Positions 1 through 43,305 of a DNA stretch of 44,005 nt are shown piece by piece. The DNA is from a virus (lineage: Duplodnaviria; Heunggongvirae; Uroviricota; Caudoviricetes), in the IMG/VR virus record IMGVR_UViG_2579778573_000005; one strand, written 5' to 3'. Within the stretch, counting starts at the first letter, position 1. The number at the start of each line of letters is the position of its first letter. The notes below the pieces were generated by a model that saw only the letters and a list, made by a program, of their open reading frames with translations, did not search any database and was not told the origin of the DNA. A program made the translations under genes and the position numbers.

Positions 1-271
1 TTACTCCAGAGACAGCCGAACCGAAAAACCGTTTTCAGCGAGCGTCAGACTCAGTGTGTTGATAGTCCAGTCCCGGTCCTCCTCGGTCCCGAAACCTTGA
101 GTTGTGACTTTGCATTCTGCTGTCAGCGACACTAAATCGAGCGTCGCTGGCGTCGTGTACGTCATAGAGAACTCTTTTTTAGCTGCACCGCCCTTGAGCC
201 CTGGTGCAGCTTCTTTCGCTGCGTCGAGCGACGGCTCAACTGCCGGCCATTCAATGACAGGATCGCCGCCA
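1..271 (-). pseudogene. Downstream segment of tail gene D in a second reading frame (open 4-324, stop at 1-3); probable frame-broken C-terminal part of D
   Basis: Minus-strand frame open for ~107 codons directly downstream of the D stop, overlapping the D 3' end; no start codon near the junction (first Met at 165). Confidence 0.35.
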
Positions 272-1045
272 CTACCTTGTCCGCAATTCTTTGATCTGCC
301 CAGTTGCTGTGTCGTGATATTTAATCAGATACGTCGGTTCCGGATTTTCGCCACCGCTACCACTATCGCCACTTTGTCCATTTCTCGAATAGCCCCAGCT
401 GGAGTTATCACGACGAGTTAGCGTGTAGTGCTGGAGCGGAGCACCGCTAACAGATTCGCCCGCGCCGCGCGGCAGGAATATCCAGTACCCGCCCGCGGGT
501 TTACTCACCGCATCGAATCTCGTTGCGAGCCGCGACATCAGGTGCATATCTGACTCGCCGACCTGATCGAGTTGCGTGATAACATTGTCTGCAAACCGCT
601 TTGATACGCGTGGTTTTAGCCCATTATCGCTCGCTATTGTCGCAACGATATCGCTGACAGTGACGTCGCTCCAGGAACGAGTCTTTTTGCTCTGAACTGT
701 CGGAGATCCTTTTGCTGCGTTCATCGGAGCCGCTTTTGCTGTGAAATCAACTACCCGGGGTTCACCGCCACTGCTAGCACCGTCAACGATGTATATCCCT
801 TTATCAATTATCTGATTACCGAAACCGAGCCCAATACTGATTTTTACTCCGCGGGCCGGAATTTTCAGAGTTTCAGAAACTATTGCTACGCGGAGTTCGT
901 CTGTCTGTTTACTGGAGCCGCCGTAATCTGTCAGCGTGATATTGATCAAACCTTTTCTTATTTTATCCGTGATGTTTTTATTATCAGCAGATATATAAAA
1001 ATTAGGTTTCCACGCCTCCACGCCAGTATTTACGTAATCACTCAT
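272..1045 (-). CDS. Phage tail protein D (P2 gpD-like), N-terminal ~257 codons
   Basis: Track ORF 257 aa; last gene of a P2-ordered tail operon; shorter than typical gpD (~350-390 aa). Confidence 0.55.
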   Translation of the reverse strand: MSDYVNTGVEAWKPNFYISADNKNITDKIRKGLINITLTDYGGSSKQTDELRVAIVSETLKIPARGVKISIGLGFGNQIIDKGIYIVDGASSGGEPRVVDFTAKAAPMNAAKGSPTVQSKKTRSWSDVTVSDIVATIASDNGLKPRVSKRFADNVITQLDQVGESDMHLMSRLATRFDAVSKPAGGYWIFLPRGAGESVSGAPLQHYTLTRRDNSSWGYSRNGQSGDSGSGGENPEPTYLIKYHDTATGQIKELRTR

Positions 1046-1048
1046 TCA

Positions 1049-1273
1049 TCAATCCCATAATTGCGTTTCTTTTTTAACCGGCTCTGGTTCGATATCTGGT
1101 AAAACAATTTTTTCTCCAGCACGAAACACGGCACACATATCCGTTACGCCGTAATTCGAAACCTGATATAAAACAGTCTCTGTCGTTTTTGACGCTCTCC
1201 CGTAGACCGCAAGGCAGATCTGATCGAGACGGTCACCGTCCCGTGTAGTGTATGTAATCATTTGGGGCCCCAT
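1049..1273 (-). CDS. Phage tail protein X-like small protein
   Basis: Track ORF 74 aa; resembles P2 gpX-type small tail proteins; sits between U and D. Confidence 0.5.
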   Translation of the reverse strand: MGPQMITYTTRDGDRLDQICLAVYGRASKTTETVLYQVSNYGVTDMCAVFRAGEKIVLPDIEPEPVKKETQLWD

Positions 1274-1434
1274 TAATTAAAAGGATTTCATAATGAGAAT
1301 TAATTTTAGTAGTCGGAGAGGTATTAGTATTTCGGCGTCAAAAAAAATACCATCAGGTTGTTTTACATTTATGTTCGTAGTTTTTTTTATTATTTTTATA
1401 CTTGTTAAGTGCTCTGGTAGCGCTTGATTTTGTA

Positions 1435-1863
1435 TTAATCTAGCGAAGCTCCATAATATTCGAGCGTGAGTGAAAAGTCCTGCGATTTAGGTGTTCCGCC
1501 CATCAAAAAGCTGTTTTGCGTTTCAGTTAGTTCTCGCAGCACCCAGTACCCTTTCACCTCCCCGGTCCCCAGCACTAGCTGCTGGGGTTCTCCCGTGTTC
1601 CCGAGCGCTCGCAAATCTGTCAACAGGCCGACGCCGCACCCGTCAAGAAATAAAGCGTTTATCTTTCCATCGATAGTAATTGTGGGGTTCGGTCGTCCGG
1701 TTATCTGCAACGCGTCGTTTTTCCCGAATCGTGTTTGCTGAGCCCAGCGCCAGGCGTCACTACGTTGCAGTTTGTTGTACGCTACTGTTGATATAGCAAA
1801 AATGAAATCACCCAGGCCGAGCATGATATCCTCAGCACCGTTTATTGCATCACTCATTGTCAC
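1435..1863 (-). CDS. Phage tail protein U-like
   Basis: Track ORF 142 aa immediately downstream of the tape measure gene, overlapping its stop. Confidence 0.5.
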   Translation of the reverse strand: MTMSDAINGAEDIMLGLGDFIFAISTVAYNKLQRSDAWRWAQQTRFGKNDALQITGRPNPTITIDGKINALFLDGCGVGLLTDLRALGNTGEPQQLVLGTGEVKGYWVLRELTETQNSFLMGGTPKSQDFSLTLEYYGASLD

Positions 1864-3500
1864 CCCGCCGCAGCTGGTTTATCAAACATCGCGCCACGAT
1901 TGTACGAACTCGCAGCCTGTCTCAGTCCATCGAGCACCCCCGACGCTGCAGATTGTTGTATTGACTGCGGATCTGTCGCACCGACAATATTGATTTCGAT
2001 TTTATTGTTTTGCTCCGGCGCAGGTGTCGAGACTGCCTGCTTCAACGTATCAATATTTAACGTCGACGAATCCAGTGCTGCAGGCGCGGTATTTTTATTT
2101 ACCATCCCGGATAATGGATTAACAAACGCGAGCATTGATTCTGCCTGAGATTTTGCCTGTTCTTGCCGTTCTGGATGCCGCATATTTTCGACAGCCTCTT
2201 CGGCTTTTGCCTTCGCAATATTATCAGCAGTCAATCCAGCGTTCGGTGAATATTTACCTCCCGAATCCATAAACTCTTGATATGCCCGATTATATTCGTC
2301 ATTATAAGTTTTCTGTTCTTCATCTGATTTTTCATCCGGAATAAGCCACTCCAGTTTCTTTACGACAGCCCATATAATCTTCCCGAATTTGACGCAACCT
2401 TCTCCAAAATTGACGATGCCATCCCACATTTTTTTCATATTTTCTGGTTTTACCCACTCAGTAATTGTGCTGACAAAACCACCCTGATTATCCTTAAACC
2501 AGGATGTAAATGTTTCACGTACTGAGTCAAACGTCGGCGCGAGTTCCCCCCCGATTTTACCGAGTGTATCTGCAAGTCCCGACGTAATAGAGCCCCACAG
2601 ATTTGTCACTGATACATGCGCACGCGCCGCCCCTTCCGCACCCTCTTTTGTTAACAAATTCGACTTTTGCGCGTCAGACATTGTCTGTTCCCAGCTTTTA
2701 CCCGTCGCCTTCATATACGTCATGATCTTATTAGCCTCGCCCCCCATGAGCTGGTCAGCGAGGCTCGCCGCTTGCTTCTCATCTTTCATTTCAGAGATGC
2801 GACGCATAACCTCATTAAACTGTTTTTCCCGATCCCAGCCAGCCATTCGTTTTTTCGTCAGGCCAATTTGAAATAACATGGGATTCAGGCTTTTTTCGTT
2901 TCCGATTTCGCCGATTTTATTTGTAAGTTCTTCAGACAAATCCCCGATATTTTCGCCGTTCAGGCCCGCGGCTTTACCAATATTTTCCCACGCAGCGTAT
3001 TTTTCGACGCCAACGCCGTAGGACTTCGCCAGACCGAGTTTTTCTGACGTCTCTGCATTCATTGCCAGCGCACCAGCTGCAGCACCGCCAATGAGCCCTG
3101 CCGCGCCAAGTGTCCCCCATTTGATACCCCGCCCCGTAGCCCTCACCGCACCTGCGGCGGCTCGTCCGCCCCATTTTGCAGCTCCTTTTGCGCGACCCGT
3201 CCACTTCTCCAGCCGCTGTTTTTTAGCAAGTTGAGTATTCAGCGCCTCCTGGTCCTGCGTTGTCGCTTTTATTCGACGGTCCAGCTTTTGATACTGAGCA
3301 GATAAATCAGAAACGTCTTTACCTGCCAGTTTCATTGCTGCGATTTTGTCTTTTAATTTATCCTGACTTTTCGTTAATTTCCCGACAGTAGACGACGTCT
3401 GCCGAATCGCATCATTGAGTTCTGTTGTACCGCGACGAAACGACGGGTCTATTCGCCCACCGAATACAACCTGCGTTTTAAAGTTTTGAGAAATAGCCAT
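1860..3500 (-). CDS. Tail tape measure protein
   Basis: Track ORF 546 aa; Gly/Ala-rich and coiled-coil-like segments; position between chaperone E and U. Confidence 0.65.
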   Translation of the reverse strand: MAISQNFKTQVVFGGRIDPSFRRGTTELNDAIRQTSSTVGKLTKSQDKLKDKIAAMKLAGKDVSDLSAQYQKLDRRIKATTQDQEALNTQLAKKQRLEKWTGRAKGAAKWGGRAAAGAVRATGRGIKWGTLGAAGLIGGAAAGALAMNAETSEKLGLAKSYGVGVEKYAAWENIGKAAGLNGENIGDLSEELTNKIGEIGNEKSLNPMLFQIGLTKKRMAGWDREKQFNEVMRRISEMKDEKQAASLADQLMGGEANKIMTYMKATGKSWEQTMSDAQKSNLLTKEGAEGAARAHVSVTNLWGSITSGLADTLGKIGGELAPTFDSVRETFTSWFKDNQGGFVSTITEWVKPENMKKMWDGIVNFGEGCVKFGKIIWAVVKKLEWLIPDEKSDEEQKTYNDEYNRAYQEFMDSGGKYSPNAGLTADNIAKAKAEEAVENMRHPERQEQAKSQAESMLAFVNPLSGMVNKNTAPAALDSSTLNIDTLKQAVSTPAPEQNNKIEINIVGATDPQSIQQSAASGVLDGLRQAASSYNRGAMFDKPAAAG

Positions 3501-3608
3501 CGATTTTCATGACCTCGTTTACATAGAAATTAAAAACCCGGTACGGCAGGTCCATTTGCGTATCGGGCGGGATGGCAAGTTTTTTCGCAATAAACGGAAT
3601 CAGAATAA

Positions 3609-3890
3609 CTATATCTGATGTCGGTCTTTCGGAGGCTTTACCAGTTCGTTAAATGCGGCCTCCATTTGATCGTAATCGCACGCAGGCAGTGCATATAAAT
3701 CCTCACGCTCCAGATTTGCCAGGCGCGCCAGCATTGTCGCTGTCCGCTCTTCAAGACCACTTTTATCGTTACTGAACATAATGCGGTCGCGTAATTTTGG
3801 TTCGCGAATAGTAATTGTATCGCGGCTCTCCCCCTTAATAATAAACGGGCGAGAGAGCGTAATAGTCATACTGTCTAATAATGATTCCAT
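3609..3890 (-). CDS. Tail assembly chaperone (P2 gpE-like)
   Basis: Track ORF 93 aa between tube and tape measure genes; a -1 frame extension ORF (3478-3648) overlaps its 3' end. Confidence 0.45.
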   Translation of the reverse strand: MESLLDSMTITLSRPFIIKGESRDTITIREPKLRDRIMFSNDKSGLEERTATMLARLANLEREDLYALPACDYDQMEAAFNELVKPPKDRHQI

Positions 3891-3902
3891 TTTATTTGCC
3901 TT

Positions 3903-4415
3903 TTAATATACATGGAGAATACGAGCAACGCCCGCAAGAACGTCAACACCATTAATTACTCGTTTCATTTTTGCAGGATGAATCTCGTAAATAATTTTTC
4001 CATTTTGAACTCGTTTATAATAGCTCGGCGCAATCGTTACTGATTGCCCAACTGCTGATTTTGAATCAGTCCCCTGCGCGTCATCAGTAATCGCCGTAAT
4101 AAGCCCCTCATATGTATCAATACGTTCAAAATTGACACCGTAATTGTCAGTATATGCACTTCGAATTTCGAACCTTGTTTTAGCACCTGGTATTAATCCC
4201 AAATACCCCATCACACCAGAATCGGAGCCAGAGACTTTAAAACTGGCTGACATTTTCTCCATTCCCCCGTCCAGAGTGATAGCTGTATCCATAGCGCCCG
4301 TCTTAAAATCATCTTCGATTATTTTCATATCGACGGGAGTGTATTCAGTGCAATTTAAAACTCGTTCTCCCTGGACGAACAACGCAAATGCACGATAGGT
4401 GTTACTATCTGCCAT
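3903..4415 (-). CDS. Tail tube protein (P2 FII-like)
   Basis: Track ORF 170 aa directly after the sheath gene. Confidence 0.6.
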   Translation of the reverse strand: MADSNTYRAFALFVQGERVLNCTEYTPVDMKIIEDDFKTGAMDTAITLDGGMEKMSASFKVSGSDSGVMGYLGLIPGAKTRFEIRSAYTDNYGVNFERIDTYEGLITAITDDAQGTDSKSAVGQSVTIAPSYYKRVQNGKIIYEIHPAKMKRVINGVDVLAGVARILHVY

Positions 4416-4432
4416 ATCAATTCTCCAGATTA

Positions 4433-5935
4433 TTAGACTGTTTCTTTAAAAAGAGAGGCCAGAGCTTCAACTGTGTAATCATTATTAATGCGGTACATTA
4501 ACGTAATTGTTTGTGCCGGGGATTTCGGTCCAAAGTCAACATTAATATAAAGATTACCAGCGGCCAGACTTTCTTTTGTATTTAACTCTTCATCTAACCA
4601 CGCCCGTCCTCCGTTAATCGCGCCCTGCTCCTCTAATTTATGCAGATACGCGTTTATCGACTCTACAACGTCTGTTCCGAGGTGCAGGTCTATCGGGCGA
4701 TCAATAAAATCGGTCATCATTGCCCGGGCTATTGAATCCTCAATTACGTCAGCTGTCCGACGAACGCATTCAAAGGACCATTGGGGACTGAGGCTACACA
4801 GATAGTTACCCCAGTGTCTGAATCCATCATAGCGAATAATTGTGCTGACCTGGCTGGCGTTCAGCAGATTTGCTGTGCAGTTCGTTTCACCGATTATAAA
4901 ATCATCGACTTGTTCGAGTCCTGTAATTCCGTAGATATTTTGATTCGATTTGCTCCACCAAAACCCTTTTTCGTTATCAATTCTGGCTCGTAAACCAGCA
5001 GCGATAGCTGAATACGGACGAGATAAACCACTAACATCACTCGTAGAATAAACACGAGGGCGCAGAATTTCCATTCTGCCGCCGTACCTCTGACGACGAT
5101 TTACAACGTCAGCAGGCGTAGCGCCTCGCGGTGAATCGATATATCCAACGCCTCGTAATTTATTTGTCACCACTTCAAGTTGTTCTGCAATATAATCGTT
5201 AGCACTATAATCTGGAGCGATTAAAATTCTCGGCGTTACTTGATTTATTTGCGCAGACGTCAACAATGCGTTAATCCCGTTAACGACGTTCTGCCGCATT
5301 TTTGTTTCGTCGCTGTCCTCTTCGACGCGGACAACAACAATAATGGCATCCTCCTGATTTAGTATTTCAGATACAGCGGGAGGAAGGGTTCCAGACCCAC
5401 CGAGCAATCCAGCTTTTTTTTGACTGCCTGCAATTAACGTCGGAACATTATATTTGAACGATTCGTCTTTACCACCGGATAAATTTGTTGGGGGGAGCGC
5501 GAATACAGTCCCCGTTCCTGCGTGATCACCACCGAATGTGACGTTAATATATTCTCCAATCTGGAGTCCTTCTTTATACTGCTGGTTCTGATCGTACATT
5601 TTTGACGGGGTCATGGCACCGTCCGTGATCATTGTTAATTTTCTCGAACCGTCGGGCAGTGTGCTGTATCCTGGAGTTGCTACATTCCCGTTAATTCCCA
5701 AATCAACAATTTCAACAATCCAGTTGTTTCCGTCGGCCCCTGGCATGACAGTCGAAAACTCAACAAGATTGTCTGCGAGCTCTGATCCCCATAATAGTGA
5801 TGCACAAGTTGGGTAGCTGGAATCGGGAGCAGTACCAACAATCCCAATCACGGAAATATCTACTGTGTTGATCTCTTTTGTGCCGTCGTCGTATTCGAGC
5901 GTGCGAATACCGTGTAAAAAATTAGTTACGCTCAT
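4433..5935 (-). CDS. Contractile tail sheath protein (P2 FI-like)
   Basis: Track ORF 500 aa; N-terminal region resembles P2 FI sheath. Confidence 0.8.
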   Translation of the reverse strand: MSVTNFLHGIRTLEYDDGTKEINTVDISVIGIVGTAPDSSYPTCASLLWGSELADNLVEFSTVMPGADGNNWIVEIVDLGINGNVATPGYSTLPDGSRKLTMITDGAMTPSKMYDQNQQYKEGLQIGEYINVTFGGDHAGTGTVFALPPTNLSGGKDESFKYNVPTLIAGSQKKAGLLGGSGTLPPAVSEILNQEDAIIVVVRVEEDSDETKMRQNVVNGINALLTSAQINQVTPRILIAPDYSANDYIAEQLEVVTNKLRGVGYIDSPRGATPADVVNRRQRYGGRMEILRPRVYSTSDVSGLSRPYSAIAAGLRARIDNEKGFWWSKSNQNIYGITGLEQVDDFIIGETNCTANLLNASQVSTIIRYDGFRHWGNYLCSLSPQWSFECVRRTADVIEDSIARAMMTDFIDRPIDLHLGTDVVESINAYLHKLEEQGAINGGRAWLDEELNTKESLAAGNLYINVDFGPKSPAQTITLMYRINNDYTVEALASLFKETV

Positions 5936-27165: not shown

Positions 27166-28305
27166 CTAAAAGTCCTTTGATTCTTGCTTGGTTAACAAAA
27201 TGACATAATTTTATTTAATGCCATAACAACTTAACAATATATCATAATATGATTATTATGGTGTAGCTTGTCGCATCTACGCTCCATTACAAACAGATGT
27301 AAGATATAACCTATATGTTTTAGCCAGCAAATTCGAAAGCATTCAAAGTAGTCTCATCGAACTCTCGAAACCCTATGTCTTCGGGTATAAAATATTTAAA
27401 TCCATTTGCATAATATCGACTCATGTTTATTATATTCTCCCCATTCACCATTAAGATTTGACATTATTTTCAACAATCGGTTATTGCAAGATTGAAATAT
27501 ATTTTTACTTGACACAATATTCCATGTAGCCCAGCGATTCGACTTACCCCCAACTATACGGACAATCTAAATTAAATCGATGATTTTTTGATACATTCTC
27601 CTCTCTCCATTACTTTATGTTTTTGTTCCCCAAAAATACCTTGCTCTCTAAAAAATAATTGTTCTTTAAGTTCAAAATCGAGATCTACATGAGCGTTAGA
27701 TACAAAGCTAATATGTTGAAATGTCTTTCCCCCCCCCATAACGGCATTGTTATCTAAACTATGTTACACAAATATAATATTACCCTTTCAACGTAATCCA
27801 AGAATAAGATTAATGCCATTATATATATCATAAATATGATATTTTGTATATTTTTATCATTTAGCCTTGATTGTACTAGGTGTACTCTCAACGAAGTAGG
27901 GAAAGTCTGTTCCTCGCTCACAGCTGCCCTTCAGTAAGCGAAAAAATGCCTACTCGGTGCCATATACAGCCATTGTTATTAACAGCAGGGAATAATTCAA
28001 AACTGAAATTAAATATCTACCTTTTACAGTAGAAATAGTTCCTCCAGGACACTATCCATTGCCGGGCACAATCACTCGGGGTATAACGATATAAAATATG
28101 TTCATGATAGTGCAGGTTCGTATATTAAGTTCAGCAGCGAAAACATGCCTTACAGGTTTCCGGTTTTGGGAGCGTCGTTACAGGATCCTGCGCATACCGT
28201 TCCCATCTGTTGAATTAAAGGTTTCACAGCCTTTGCCGATATCACCTTTTACCTTACCTGTGATGCGTTCAGTGCTGAAGTGGTCAACAAAAACTGGCCA
28301 CCGAG

Positions 28306-29453
<1,148 letters not shown>

Positions 29454-29606
29454 TATGGCACCTGTGTTGTTCTGAGGTGAGCATATCACCTCTGTTCAGG
29501 TGGCCAAATTCAGTAAACCACTTCATGCTCAGCGTTGTTTACTGTAGCTCTCGGGACTGATTACAGACCGCGTCTTAAAAACCAATCCTTACTCTAAAGG
29601 GAATTC

Positions 29607-41689: not shown

Positions 41690-41888
41690 ATCAAAGCAAT
41701 GTGAGGCTCTTCGCCGGGCTGGAATTTTCTTCATGGAAAGGGCTGACGGACACCCAAAAACAACCTGGGGCCATTTCATGAACCCAATAAAATTTCGCAA
41801 TTTACAGGAGGTGACGACGCGAAAAGATGATGAACCTGATTTTGGAGCAATATTTAATGGCCGGAAAGAGAAAGAACCCAGCAGATAA
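41625..41888 (+). CDS. DUF4224-like protein upstream of integrase (possible excisionase/directionality factor)
   Basis: Track ORF 87 aa; IITREEMVELTG...RRAGIFF pattern; GAGGAAAGACC RBS module. Confidence 0.5.
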   Translation: MKSDHDIITREEMVELTGSPLKSKQCEALRRAGIFFMERADGHPKTTWGHFMNPIKFRNLQEVTTRKDDEPDFGAIFNGRKEKEPSR

Positions 41889-42873
41889 CTGGATGCCGCC
41901 TCGTGTTTACCAGGGCAAAGCGGCCTACGAATTCAGGAATAAAGATAACAAAGCGATACGCCTGTGCGCATTGGATGCACCACGATCAGCCGTATGGCTG
42001 GCATATGAAAAAGCGGTCGGTGACGAAAAAGAAAGAAATACTTTTCAGGCGCTCACGGAACAATTCATGACCTCCCCTGATTTTATGGATTTGGCAGTCG
42101 AAACCCGGAAAGACTACACAAAATATTCCGGAAAAGTTCTGCCTGTCTTCGGGAAGATCGACCCGGATAAAATCAAACCTGAACATATTCGGCGCTATAT
42201 GGATCAACGCGGTTTATCAAGCCGAACTCAGGCAAACAGGGAAAAAAGCTTTATGTCCCGGGTATTCCGTTGGGGTTATGAACGAGGTTATGTTCAGAGG
42301 AATCCTTGTCAGGGAGTTAAACAGTTTAAAGAGAAAGCTCGCGAACGTTATATTACGGATGAAGAATATCAGGCCGTTTATGAAGTGTCTCCTGATGTTG
42401 TTCGCGTAGCAATGGAGATTGCCTACTTATGCGTGGCCAGACAGAGTGATGTACTTTCATTGCAGAAAGACCAGCTGTTCGATTCCGGGATCTACATTCG
42501 TCAGGGAAAAACCGGCGTTAAGCAAATCAAAGCCTGGTCGCCTCGTCTGCAGAAAGCGATAGCTCTGGCTCGTTCTCTGCCATTAAAAACGGGAATCAGT
42601 AGCCTGTTTGTGATTCATCAAACTACCGGTGGCAAGTATACCCGTGATGGTTTTAACTCTCGTTGGCGTGATGTCAAAGCGGCAGCACAGGAAAAATATC
42701 CTCATCTGCAAATAGACTTCACATTTCATGATCTGAAAGCAAAAGGTATCTCTGATCTGGAAGGCAGCCTGGAAGAGAAGCAAGCAATTTCCGGGCATAA
42801 GAACCCGCGACAGACAGCAGCATATGACCGGAAAGTTAAAGTAGTGCCCGTAGTTGGTGGCCAGAGAAAATGA
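41857..42873 (+). CDS. int: Tyrosine integrase
   Basis: Track ORF 41827-42873; likely start ATG 41857; ends 130 bp from the tRNA-Leu 3' end. Confidence 0.8.
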   Translation: MAGKRKNPADNWMPPRVYQGKAAYEFRNKDNKAIRLCALDAPRSAVWLAYEKAVGDEKERNTFQALTEQFMTSPDFMDLAVETRKDYTKYSGKVLPVFGKIDPDKIKPEHIRRYMDQRGLSSRTQANREKSFMSRVFRWGYERGYVQRNPCQGVKQFKEKARERYITDEEYQAVYEVSPDVVRVAMEIAYLCVARQSDVLSLQKDQLFDSGIYIRQGKTGVKQIKAWSPRLQKAIALARSLPLKTGISSLFVIHQTTGGKYTRDGFNSRWRDVKAAAQEKYPHLQIDFTFHDLKAKGISDLEGSLEEKQAISGHKNPRQTAAYDRKVKVVPVVGGQRK

Positions 42874-42878
42874 ATGAT

Positions 42879-42913
42879 GATGCGTCCAGAGAAAAATCAT
42901 CTTCGGACGCATC
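42879..42913. promoter_or_regulatory. 9-bp inverted repeat in the int-tRNA spacer (att-region element or int terminator)
   Basis: GATGCGTCC ... GGACGCATC with 17-nt loop. Confidence 0.3.
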
Positions 42914-42933
42914 TTCGGAAATGAGAAAGAAGA

Positions 42934-42960
42934 TACAAAAAAACCACCCGAAGGTGGTTT
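42934..42960 (-). terminator. Rho-independent terminator downstream of tRNA-Leu
   Basis: Minus strand AAACCACC-TTCG-GGTGGTTT followed by TTTTT. Confidence 0.65.
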
Positions 42961-43003
42961 CACGACACTGCTTATTGCTTTGATTTTATTCTTATCTTTC
43001 CCA

Positions 43004-43090
43004 TGGTACCCGGAGCGGGACTTGAACCCGCACAGCGCGAACGCCGAGGGATTTTAAATCCCTTGTGTCTACCGATTCCACCATCCGGGC
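43004..43090 (-). tRNA. leuZ: tRNA-Leu (anticodon UAA)
   Basis: 87-nt reverse complement reads GCCCGGATGGTGGAATCGGTAGACACAAGGGATTTAAAATCCC...CCA with long variable arm. Confidence 0.9.
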
Positions 43091-43102
43091 TCGGGAAAAA
43101 AG

Positions 43103-43176
43103 TGGAGGCGCGTTCCGGAGTCGAACCGGACTAGACGGATTTGCAATCCGCTACATAACCGCTTTGTTAACGCGCC
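43103..43176 (-). tRNA. cysT: tRNA-Cys (anticodon GCA)
   Basis: 74-nt reverse complement reads GGCGCGTTAACAAAGCGG...GATTGCAAATC...TCCA. Confidence 0.9.
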
Positions 43177-43229
43177 AAATTCTTCAGGCCTTTCAGCCAG
43201 ACATCCGCTGACGCCGATGCCTTTTAAAC

Positions 43230-43305
<76 letters not shown>

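Follow-up and report, generated by a model that had tools for sequence, protein, structure and literature searches.

Relationship to known baseplate hub proteins

In contractile systems, assembly of the baseplate and the tail tube is nucleated by a trimeric hub, and phage P2 forms no tails without gene D. The described proteins closest to the one considered here are P2 gpD (Phage_GPD, PF05954), the hub of the R2 pyocin (PDB 6U5H), Mu gp44, the 43-kDa protein of MuSo2, T4 gp27 and the N-terminal module of VgrG. The window, that is, the whole stretch of 44,005 nucleotides that was analysed, carries a related gene D. It is the last gene of a contractile-tail module ordered sheath, tube, chaperone, tape measure, U, X, D, as read from the ORFs, the family matches at 1049-5935 and the RefSeq annotation; the sheath, tube and chaperone genes lie upstream of the tape measure, at 3609-5935. 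The features of this region are the following.

1..276, minus strand: C-terminal remnant of D, 91 codons (GSGGDPVIEWP...RLSLE) and the TAA at 3-1
1..165, minus strand: ATG-initiated 54-aa ORF internal to the C-terminal remnant, from the ORF list
272..1045, minus strand: N-terminal fragment of a putative gpD-family baseplate-hub protein, 256 native residues (M1-T256), one aberrant Arg and a premature TAG at 274-272
277..278, minus strand: site of the one-base insertion, coding-strand AA where intact relatives have a single A
1049..1273, minus strand: tail protein X gene, immediately upstream of D (Pfam Phage_tail_X, 56.4 bits; RefSeq)
1435..1863, minus strand: gpU-family tail protein gene (Pfam Phage_P2_GpU, 108 bits)
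1860..3500, minus strand: presumed tape-measure gene, 546 aa (ORF list and RefSeq annotation of the identical region), assigned by size and position only
3609-3890, minus strand: tail assembly chaperone (Phage_TAC_7)
3903-4415: tube gene of the contractile-tail module
4433-5935: sheath gene of the contractile-tail module

A search of 5.8 billion proteins returned 102 homologues of D. Those that are not marked as partial are single proteins of 325-442 aa, with identities down to 26%, and most of them cover at least 89% of the intact query by local alignment. No split D gene was found elsewhere among the 102, the only 257-aa entry being the same insertion allele described below. A 390-aa 'late control protein D' of E. 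coli matches with 42% identity over 99% of its length (E = 2e-80). The family profile itself is less generous: with hmmscan, the fragment reaches 22.4 bits against Phage_GPD (PF05954) and the intact relative 23.8 bits, both short of the 30.1 cut-off, and only residues 120-178 are matched. A precomputed Pfam column lists PF05954 for nearly all of the 102 homologues, the truncated allele included. The NCBIfam scan gave 18-19 bits for VgrG_rel, far from its cut-off of 275, and the Pfam and NCBIfam scans of the 91-aa C-terminal piece gave no match. Because the Phage_GPD score of D lies under the cut-off, the assignment to the gpD family rests on the match to a solved structure, the fold, the synteny and the named homologues.

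No solved structure matches the sequence better than the R2 pyocin hub (6u5h_C, E = 2e-22); the alignment covers residues 13-222, and the envelope 1-320. The AlphaFold2 model of an intact protein that is 97% identical (P0001), built on a 27-sequence alignment, has a pLDDT of 85.7 and a pTM of 0.81. Submitted to Foldseek, this model gave matches to the R2 pyocin hub, the MuSo2 43-kDa protein, Mu gp44, T4 gp27 and VgrG-like proteins of PVC, AFP, other contractile injection systems and the T6SS, all at full length and with a probability of 1.00. Five of these matches (6u5h, 3cdd, 1wru, 9ki1 and T4 gp27 1k28) extend over 352-397 alignment columns and query-normalised TM-scores of 0.58-0.66; such scores reach 0.73 among the top matches. 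On sequence and model together, D is thus classed as a gpD/gp27-like baseplate hub protein, predicted to form a trimeric hub under the tail tube.

The resemblance to P2 gpD lies in the matches to 'late control protein D' homologues and in the position of D at the end of the order sheath, tube, chaperone, tape measure, U, (X), D. The intact form of the present protein is nevertheless shorter (347 aa) and devoid of the basic C-terminal tail of the 363-399-aa D proteins; moreover, a gene X separates U from D, the copy in the window is frameshifted and its own Pfam score stays under the gathering threshold. The R2 pyocin provides the best match in structure as it does in sequence (6u5h_A, Foldseek E = 5e-20, TM-score 0.66/0.72 over the full length), and its gene cluster has the same U-X-D order. 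Identity to the pyocin protein is however only about 21-30%, and the element studied here is no tailocin but a complete prophage of the temperate type, which has lambda-like head genes as well as genes for lysis and regulation. Finally, the modelled fold matches Mu gp44, the MuSo2 protein, T4 gp27 and the VgrG N-terminal module over the whole length (3cdd, 1wru, 9ki1, 1k28 and 4uhv; probability 1.00), but sequence identity to them is 10-15%, and D lacks the fused spike or gp5-like domain found in VgrG.

A single extra base splits gene D

In the window, D is distributed over two frames of the minus strand. According to the ORF list and its translation, the first (frame A) runs from 1045 to 272, encodes 257 aa and ends at a TAG at 274-272. 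The second (frame B) is open from 324 to the TAA at 3-1 and translates into 107 sense codons; no ATG, GTG or TTG start codon is listed in it between 324 and 165, the first being the ATG at 165. Position 1 of the window is the end of the D stop codon, and the gene is consequently not cut by the window edge. The first-pass annotation had described a D-like ORF stopping at 272-274 after some 257 codons, a second frame open from 324 to the window start for about 107 codons, no start near the junction and about 350 aa for the two pieces together. These figures are all recovered here, the combined length being 347 aa.

The cause of the split can be specified to the base. On the coding strand, an extra A (T277/T278 on the plus strand) converts ACA GGT AGT into ACA AGG TAG. 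In a DNA alignment, the window reads CGG ACA AGG TAG TGG at a point where E. coli ZH063, TUM13936 and RM10042 all read CGG ACA GGT AGT GGC, and this difference occupies a single gap column. The TAG follows two codons past the break (ACA AGG TAG), at the low end of the 270-330 interval to which the first-pass annotation had pointed. The comparison of the whole window with ZH063 likewise reports (277, T, -).

When base 277 of the plus strand is removed, a 1044-nt ORF is obtained that shows 0 differences from the D gene of E. coli ZH063, an ST131 strain of type fimH35 whose gene is intact (347 aa) and which is identical to the window in the D region apart from the extra base. Frame A corresponds to residues 1-256 of the ZH063 protein at 100% identity, plus the aberrant Arg, and frame B to residues 257-347, also 100% identical. 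This restoration of a 1044-nt ORF identical to the ZH063 gene indicates that the two pieces belong to one gene and were not brought together by chance. Relative to the N-terminal fragment, the C-terminal remnant is in the +1 frame, out of reach from the D start codon.

Two more distant relatives give the same picture. TUM13936 has 95% DNA identity in the D region and RM10042 92%, the latter in another chromosomal context, next to yodB; both have D as an intact single ORF. Over the 91 codons compared with RM10042, frame B shows 35 nucleotide differences, corresponding to 31 synonymous and 2 non-synonymous codon changes; frame B is true D coding sequence, and this segment is under purifying selection in the relatives. 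The single-ORF state is ancestral: it is present in relatives at 95% and 92% DNA identity and in all the other homologues. The window copy is best described as a frameshift pseudogene, judging from an intact collinear orthologue to which it is identical at 1044/1044 positions once the single indel that explains the break is set aside. The +1/-2 frame break in a gpD-family tail gene that had been proposed from the window alone thus takes the precise form of one extra base at 277/278, and one gap column against the three relatives is sufficient to explain it. The opposite outcome, in which homologues would end with frame A and frame B would have no counterpart, is contradicted by homologues that extend past this point and by the identity of frame B with the C-terminus of intact D.

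Predicted effect on the hub and on the prophage

The segment beyond the break is an integral part of the modelled fold. Residues 257-347 comprise a strand (260-270), a helix (273-289) and four further strands (292-299, 312-316, 325-336 and 339-346), with a pLDDT of 82-95 for the block. Of the 13 invariant columns of the 27-sequence alignment, where identities fall as low as 26%, this lost segment holds 3 (A276, W326 and G339), together with the near-invariant G317.

The following sequence of events can be proposed. Owing to the extra coding-strand A at 277/278, translation would proceed to ...ELRT-R-stop and yield a 257-aa product, the last 91 residues of D being left untranslated in the +1 frame. 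The truncated protein would be deprived of a conserved, folded part of the hub, so that the trimeric hub would not be built; no tail would then be assembled and the element would be a decaying, defective prophage. The insertion itself is recent and clonally inherited in ST131-type genomes, including the fimH30 strains MNCRE44 and uk_P46212. Its recent date is suggested by how little the ZH063 copy differs: in the D region by the extra base only, and over the remainder of the 44 kb by 5 SNPs, one single-base indel in a stretch devoid of annotated genes and one 1250-bp insertion sequence (IS). At the IS boundary, the alignment also shows a 1-nt gap, which is probably artefactual.

It is therefore very probable that a genuine one-base insertion has broken the hub gene of this prophage, with conservation and the structure model both pointing to loss of function. 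The hub is most likely inactivated and the prophage unable to assemble tails, in view of the nucleating role of the hub trimer and of the requirement for D in P2. Polar effects on other tail genes are not expected since D is the last of them. Against inactivation, a low-level frame correction during translation could supply some hub, and the D protein of another prophage could complement the defect in trans; E. coli has D homologues at about 41% identity that represent a possible source.

The comparison with defective or cryptic prophages carrying frameshifted structural genes is instructive. As in these elements, an essential virion gene has been cut short by one indel, which passes vertically with the host clone, and some descendants bear secondary lesions (an IS1 in X, a further deletion in D). 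Two carriers of the insertion allele are concerned. In TUM2367, an IS1 is inserted in tail gene X and truncates it (L009 1474-2171), and in S931B the D fragment is reduced to an ORF of 225 aa (L010 572-1249). These anecdotal cases fit a relaxed selection. Unlike such prophages, however, the rest of the present element is almost untouched. RefSeq annotation lists an integrase, a repressor region, replication genes, Q, lysis, terminase, lambda-like head, baseplate and fibre genes, and the element looks complete in this respect.

Recoding at the junction

An alternative worth weighing is that ribosomes shift by +1 at ACA-AGG-UAG, so that some full-length hub is made and the prophage remains partly functional. 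A +1 shift at AGG or at UAG would indeed restore the D frame, as a simple reading of the sequence indicates. In E. coli, AGG is seldom used for arginine, and +1 shifts can be promoted by 'hungry' codons or by stops placed beside a shift-prone codon, as in prfB and at tandem AGG codons. Only three hub copies suffice per tail, and the downstream frame is still undamaged. This last argument carries no information, however, since a mutation this recent would not yet have led to visible decay.

Several observations make this alternative very improbable. The site is not conserved: no other gene is split among the 102 homologues and the relatives at 92-100% DNA identity are single ORFs, which designates a new mutation rather than an evolved signal. 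A conserved two-frame organisation was sought among the homologues and is absent from all the others. Re-pairing in the P site would be poor, since ACA to CAA offers no good pairing and AGG to GGU suffers from a C-U clash at the wobble position. No Shine-Dalgarno-like element is present just upstream (GAATTGCGGACAAGGTAG), and the stop context is UAG-U, a strong termination context. The direct reading of GAATTGCGGACAAGGTAGT for signals of the prfB type led to the same result, with no re-pairing for ACA/CAA, an imperfect one for AGG/GGU and no GGAGG-like element upstream. The prfB (RF2) programmed +1 frameshift resembles the D junction in that frame restoration would here require a +1 shift beside a stop codon. 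It differs from it by its conservation, its Shine-Dalgarno stimulator and its good re-pairing codon, all missing from the D site, and the ancestral D needs no shift. A programmed +1 frameshift was accordingly rejected, the ancestral gene and all the other homologues being single ORFs and the site being devoid of known stimulators.

A variant of this proposal can be formulated, in which the ACA-AGG-UAG junction is leaky: a small fraction of ribosomes would shift by +1, full-length hub would be made and the prophage would be weakly infectious in the pandemic ST131-H30 group. Very little credit is given to it. If true, it would correspond to an accidental, newly arisen recoding site caught at birth, and the junction peptide would read …ELRTGSGGDPVIEWPAVEPSLDAAK or …ELRTRSGGDPV….

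Distribution of the insertion allele

Inactivation by a genuine insertion, the preferred explanation, presupposes that the extra base exists in the organism. Single-base indels are the commonest assembly error, and the close relatives have intact alleles that differ by exactly this base; a sequencing or assembly error affecting a really intact gene had to be envisaged for these reasons. Positions 1-1300 of the window were compared by megablast with 5426 complete E. coli genomes. The region is present in 467 of them, and 441 of these matches are at least 99% identical. A minority form is found among the matches listed, in which the match is one base shorter (1299 nt) and a single 1044-nt gene is annotated; this intact gene bears the name 'contractile injection system protein, VgrG/Pvc8 family' or 'late control protein'.

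The two alleles were then separated with an 81-nt probe centred on 277/278, for which an identity of at least 99% is possible only for an exact match. The probe is exact in 364 of the 5426 genomes, and matches at 95-99% in 69 genomes and at 90-95% in 2 genomes. Among the 95-99% matches listed, 9 of 9 have 98.8% identity over a span of 80 nt, do not have the extra base and carry a single D annotation, under the name 'VgrG/Pvc8 family'. The insertion allele consequently accounts for 364 of the 435 genomes matched by the probe, a high share that is probably explained by how intensively ST131-H30 has been sampled for the database. In the protein database, the 257-aa fragment forms a cluster of 135 member sequences (P0009).

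Four GenBank records entitled 'Escherichia phage vB_EcoM-...' also contain the region. They are PHASTER predictions from one study based on Illumina HiSeq and SPAdes and include the host gene yecA; ON470596, ON470624 and ON470627 are records of this kind. Three of the four have the extra base and a split annotation; the fourth, vB_EcoM-720R5, has the 1299-nt form devoid of the extra base. As PHASTER predictions that take in host yecA, these records are uninformative on phage viability. Strains of known lineage give a consistent picture: MNCRE44 (H30R1) and uk_P46212 (H30Rx), both fimH30, carry the insertion allele, and ZH063 (fimH35) does not. The allele follows the named ST131 sublineages, H30 versus H35, as far as these three named strains only are concerned.

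From these comparisons, the extra base is real, fixed in its lineage and clonally inherited by a large group of ST131-type genomes. The same 81-mer is shared by 364 complete genomes from many laboratories and years, both alleles were obtained from different isolates within one Illumina HiSeq/SPAdes study, and the sequence context (ACAAGG) is a 2-base run, not a long homopolymer. An error in the window's own record is excluded only through its identity to the 364 other genomes. The first-pass annotation had left the choice between a real inactivating mutation and an assembly error; the evidence favours the former. An assembly error, which the split between the two H30 strains and the H35 strain also contradicts, is very improbable. 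It was ruled out by the recurrence in 364 genomes, the non-homopolymer context and the presence of both alleles in one Illumina study.

Least credible of all is a natural two-gene arrangement in which the hub would consist of two polypeptides assembling together: translation of a 54-aa product could begin at the ATG at 165, as annotated in one phage record, but the lack of any frame B start between 324 and 165 makes 37 of the 91 C-terminal residues impossible to produce, the protein search contains no split homologue and the split gene differs from the intact one by a single base. A split gene with two products was rejected for want of a start codon near the junction. The 54-aa ORF at 1..165 probably does not represent a gene; ON470596, a record derived from PHASTER, labels it 'hypothetical protein / Gene D protein'.

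Annotation and significance

The broken D gene, as it is understood here, is an ordinary inherited pseudogene and involves no new mechanism. The gpD/gp27-like hub family, the temperate myovirus-type prophage with a lambda-like head and the frameshift pseudogene in a decaying prophage are all known, and both D alleles are already public and annotated. In the part of the EC958 genome paper that was consulted, the prophages are named Phi1-Phi7; the site of each with respect to this locus is not given there and the D frameshift is not mentioned. A search of the literature for a prophage at the yecA/tRNA-Leu site in ST131, or for its inducibility, returned nothing relevant.

The lesion has practical implications for annotation. 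In RefSeq, the 257-aa fragment is WP_001296153.1, named 'hypothetical protein' or 'phage late control D family tail protein'. It is a normal CDS (272-1045; L001 6272-7045) that bears no pseudogene flag, and the 3' remnant is left unannotated; the fragment is thus treated as an ordinary protein rather than as a pseudogene. The PHASTER-based study, for its part, counted the prophage as 'intact'. From the biological point of view, the prophage next to yecA is likely to be tail-less in the fimH30 strains checked and probably in most ST131 carriers of the allele. Such a tail defect would have consequences for work on the induction of prophages, on transduction and on phage-mediated lysis in this clone, which is of clinical importance. 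The extra base can also serve as a simple lineage marker for typing. A large fraction of the database's ST131 genomes share the lesion, which matters little beyond bookkeeping.

The prophage and its surroundings

The prophage measures about 42 kb and lies between yecA and a tRNA-Leu/Cys/Gly cluster. At its far end (41857-43305), a tyrosine integrase, the coordinates of which were taken from the ZH063 annotation by offset, adjoins tRNA-Leu(taa), tRNA-Cys and tRNA-Gly (43004-43305). The presence of the integrase and of the tRNA cluster at this end places the prophage site between yecA and the tRNA-Leu gene. The window ends at the start codon of pgsA.

On the other side, just outside the window beyond position 1, a 139-aa ORF is found between D and yecA (L007 207-626). 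It encodes the hypothetical protein WP_001296152.1, for which no Pfam match was obtained. In RM10042, a gene annotated 'prophage tail fiber N-terminal domain' follows D in place of this ORF.

The 1250-bp IS mentioned above belongs to the IS3 family. It occupies 28276-29525, upstream of an LprI-family gene, and comprises orfA (HTH_Tnp_1) and orfB (rve) as well as imperfect terminal inverted repeats of 27 nt. The near-identical copies in ZH063 and, by coordinate offset, in 4/1-1 do not have it.

The gap between X and U (1293-1427, plus strand) is AT-rich and contains a 44-aa hydrophobic ORF on the strand opposite to the tail genes, with no Pfam match. In the RM10042 prophage, the same gap holds an opposite-strand gene annotated 'superinfection immunity protein'. 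This gap looks like a moron slot.

Another frame was noticed on the minus strand at about 3480-3650. There, a -1 frame stays open from a point close to the end of the chaperone ORF, through a 108-nt gap, and stops shortly after entering the tape-measure gene. Its translation is ...LIPFIAKKLAIPPDTQMDLPYRVFNFYVNEVMKIDGYFSKL up to the stop, and an in-frame GTA AAG (A_AAG) is located at about 3639. It is the expected programmed -1 frameshift of tail chaperones, of the gpE/E' type, and is unrelated to the break in D.

Finally, a 33-nt stretch at 1254-1286, overlapping the start of gene X, matches at 100% annotated CRISPR arrays in two E. coli, S40 (NZ_CP010235.1 1193428-1193460) and GCM39-10-2-9-3-1 (NZ_CM170158.1). 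On the plus strand, the match begins at the G of an ATG (1252-1254), and ATG is a functional type I-E PAM. These sequence matches suggest a natural CRISPR immunity against the phage group to which this prophage belongs.
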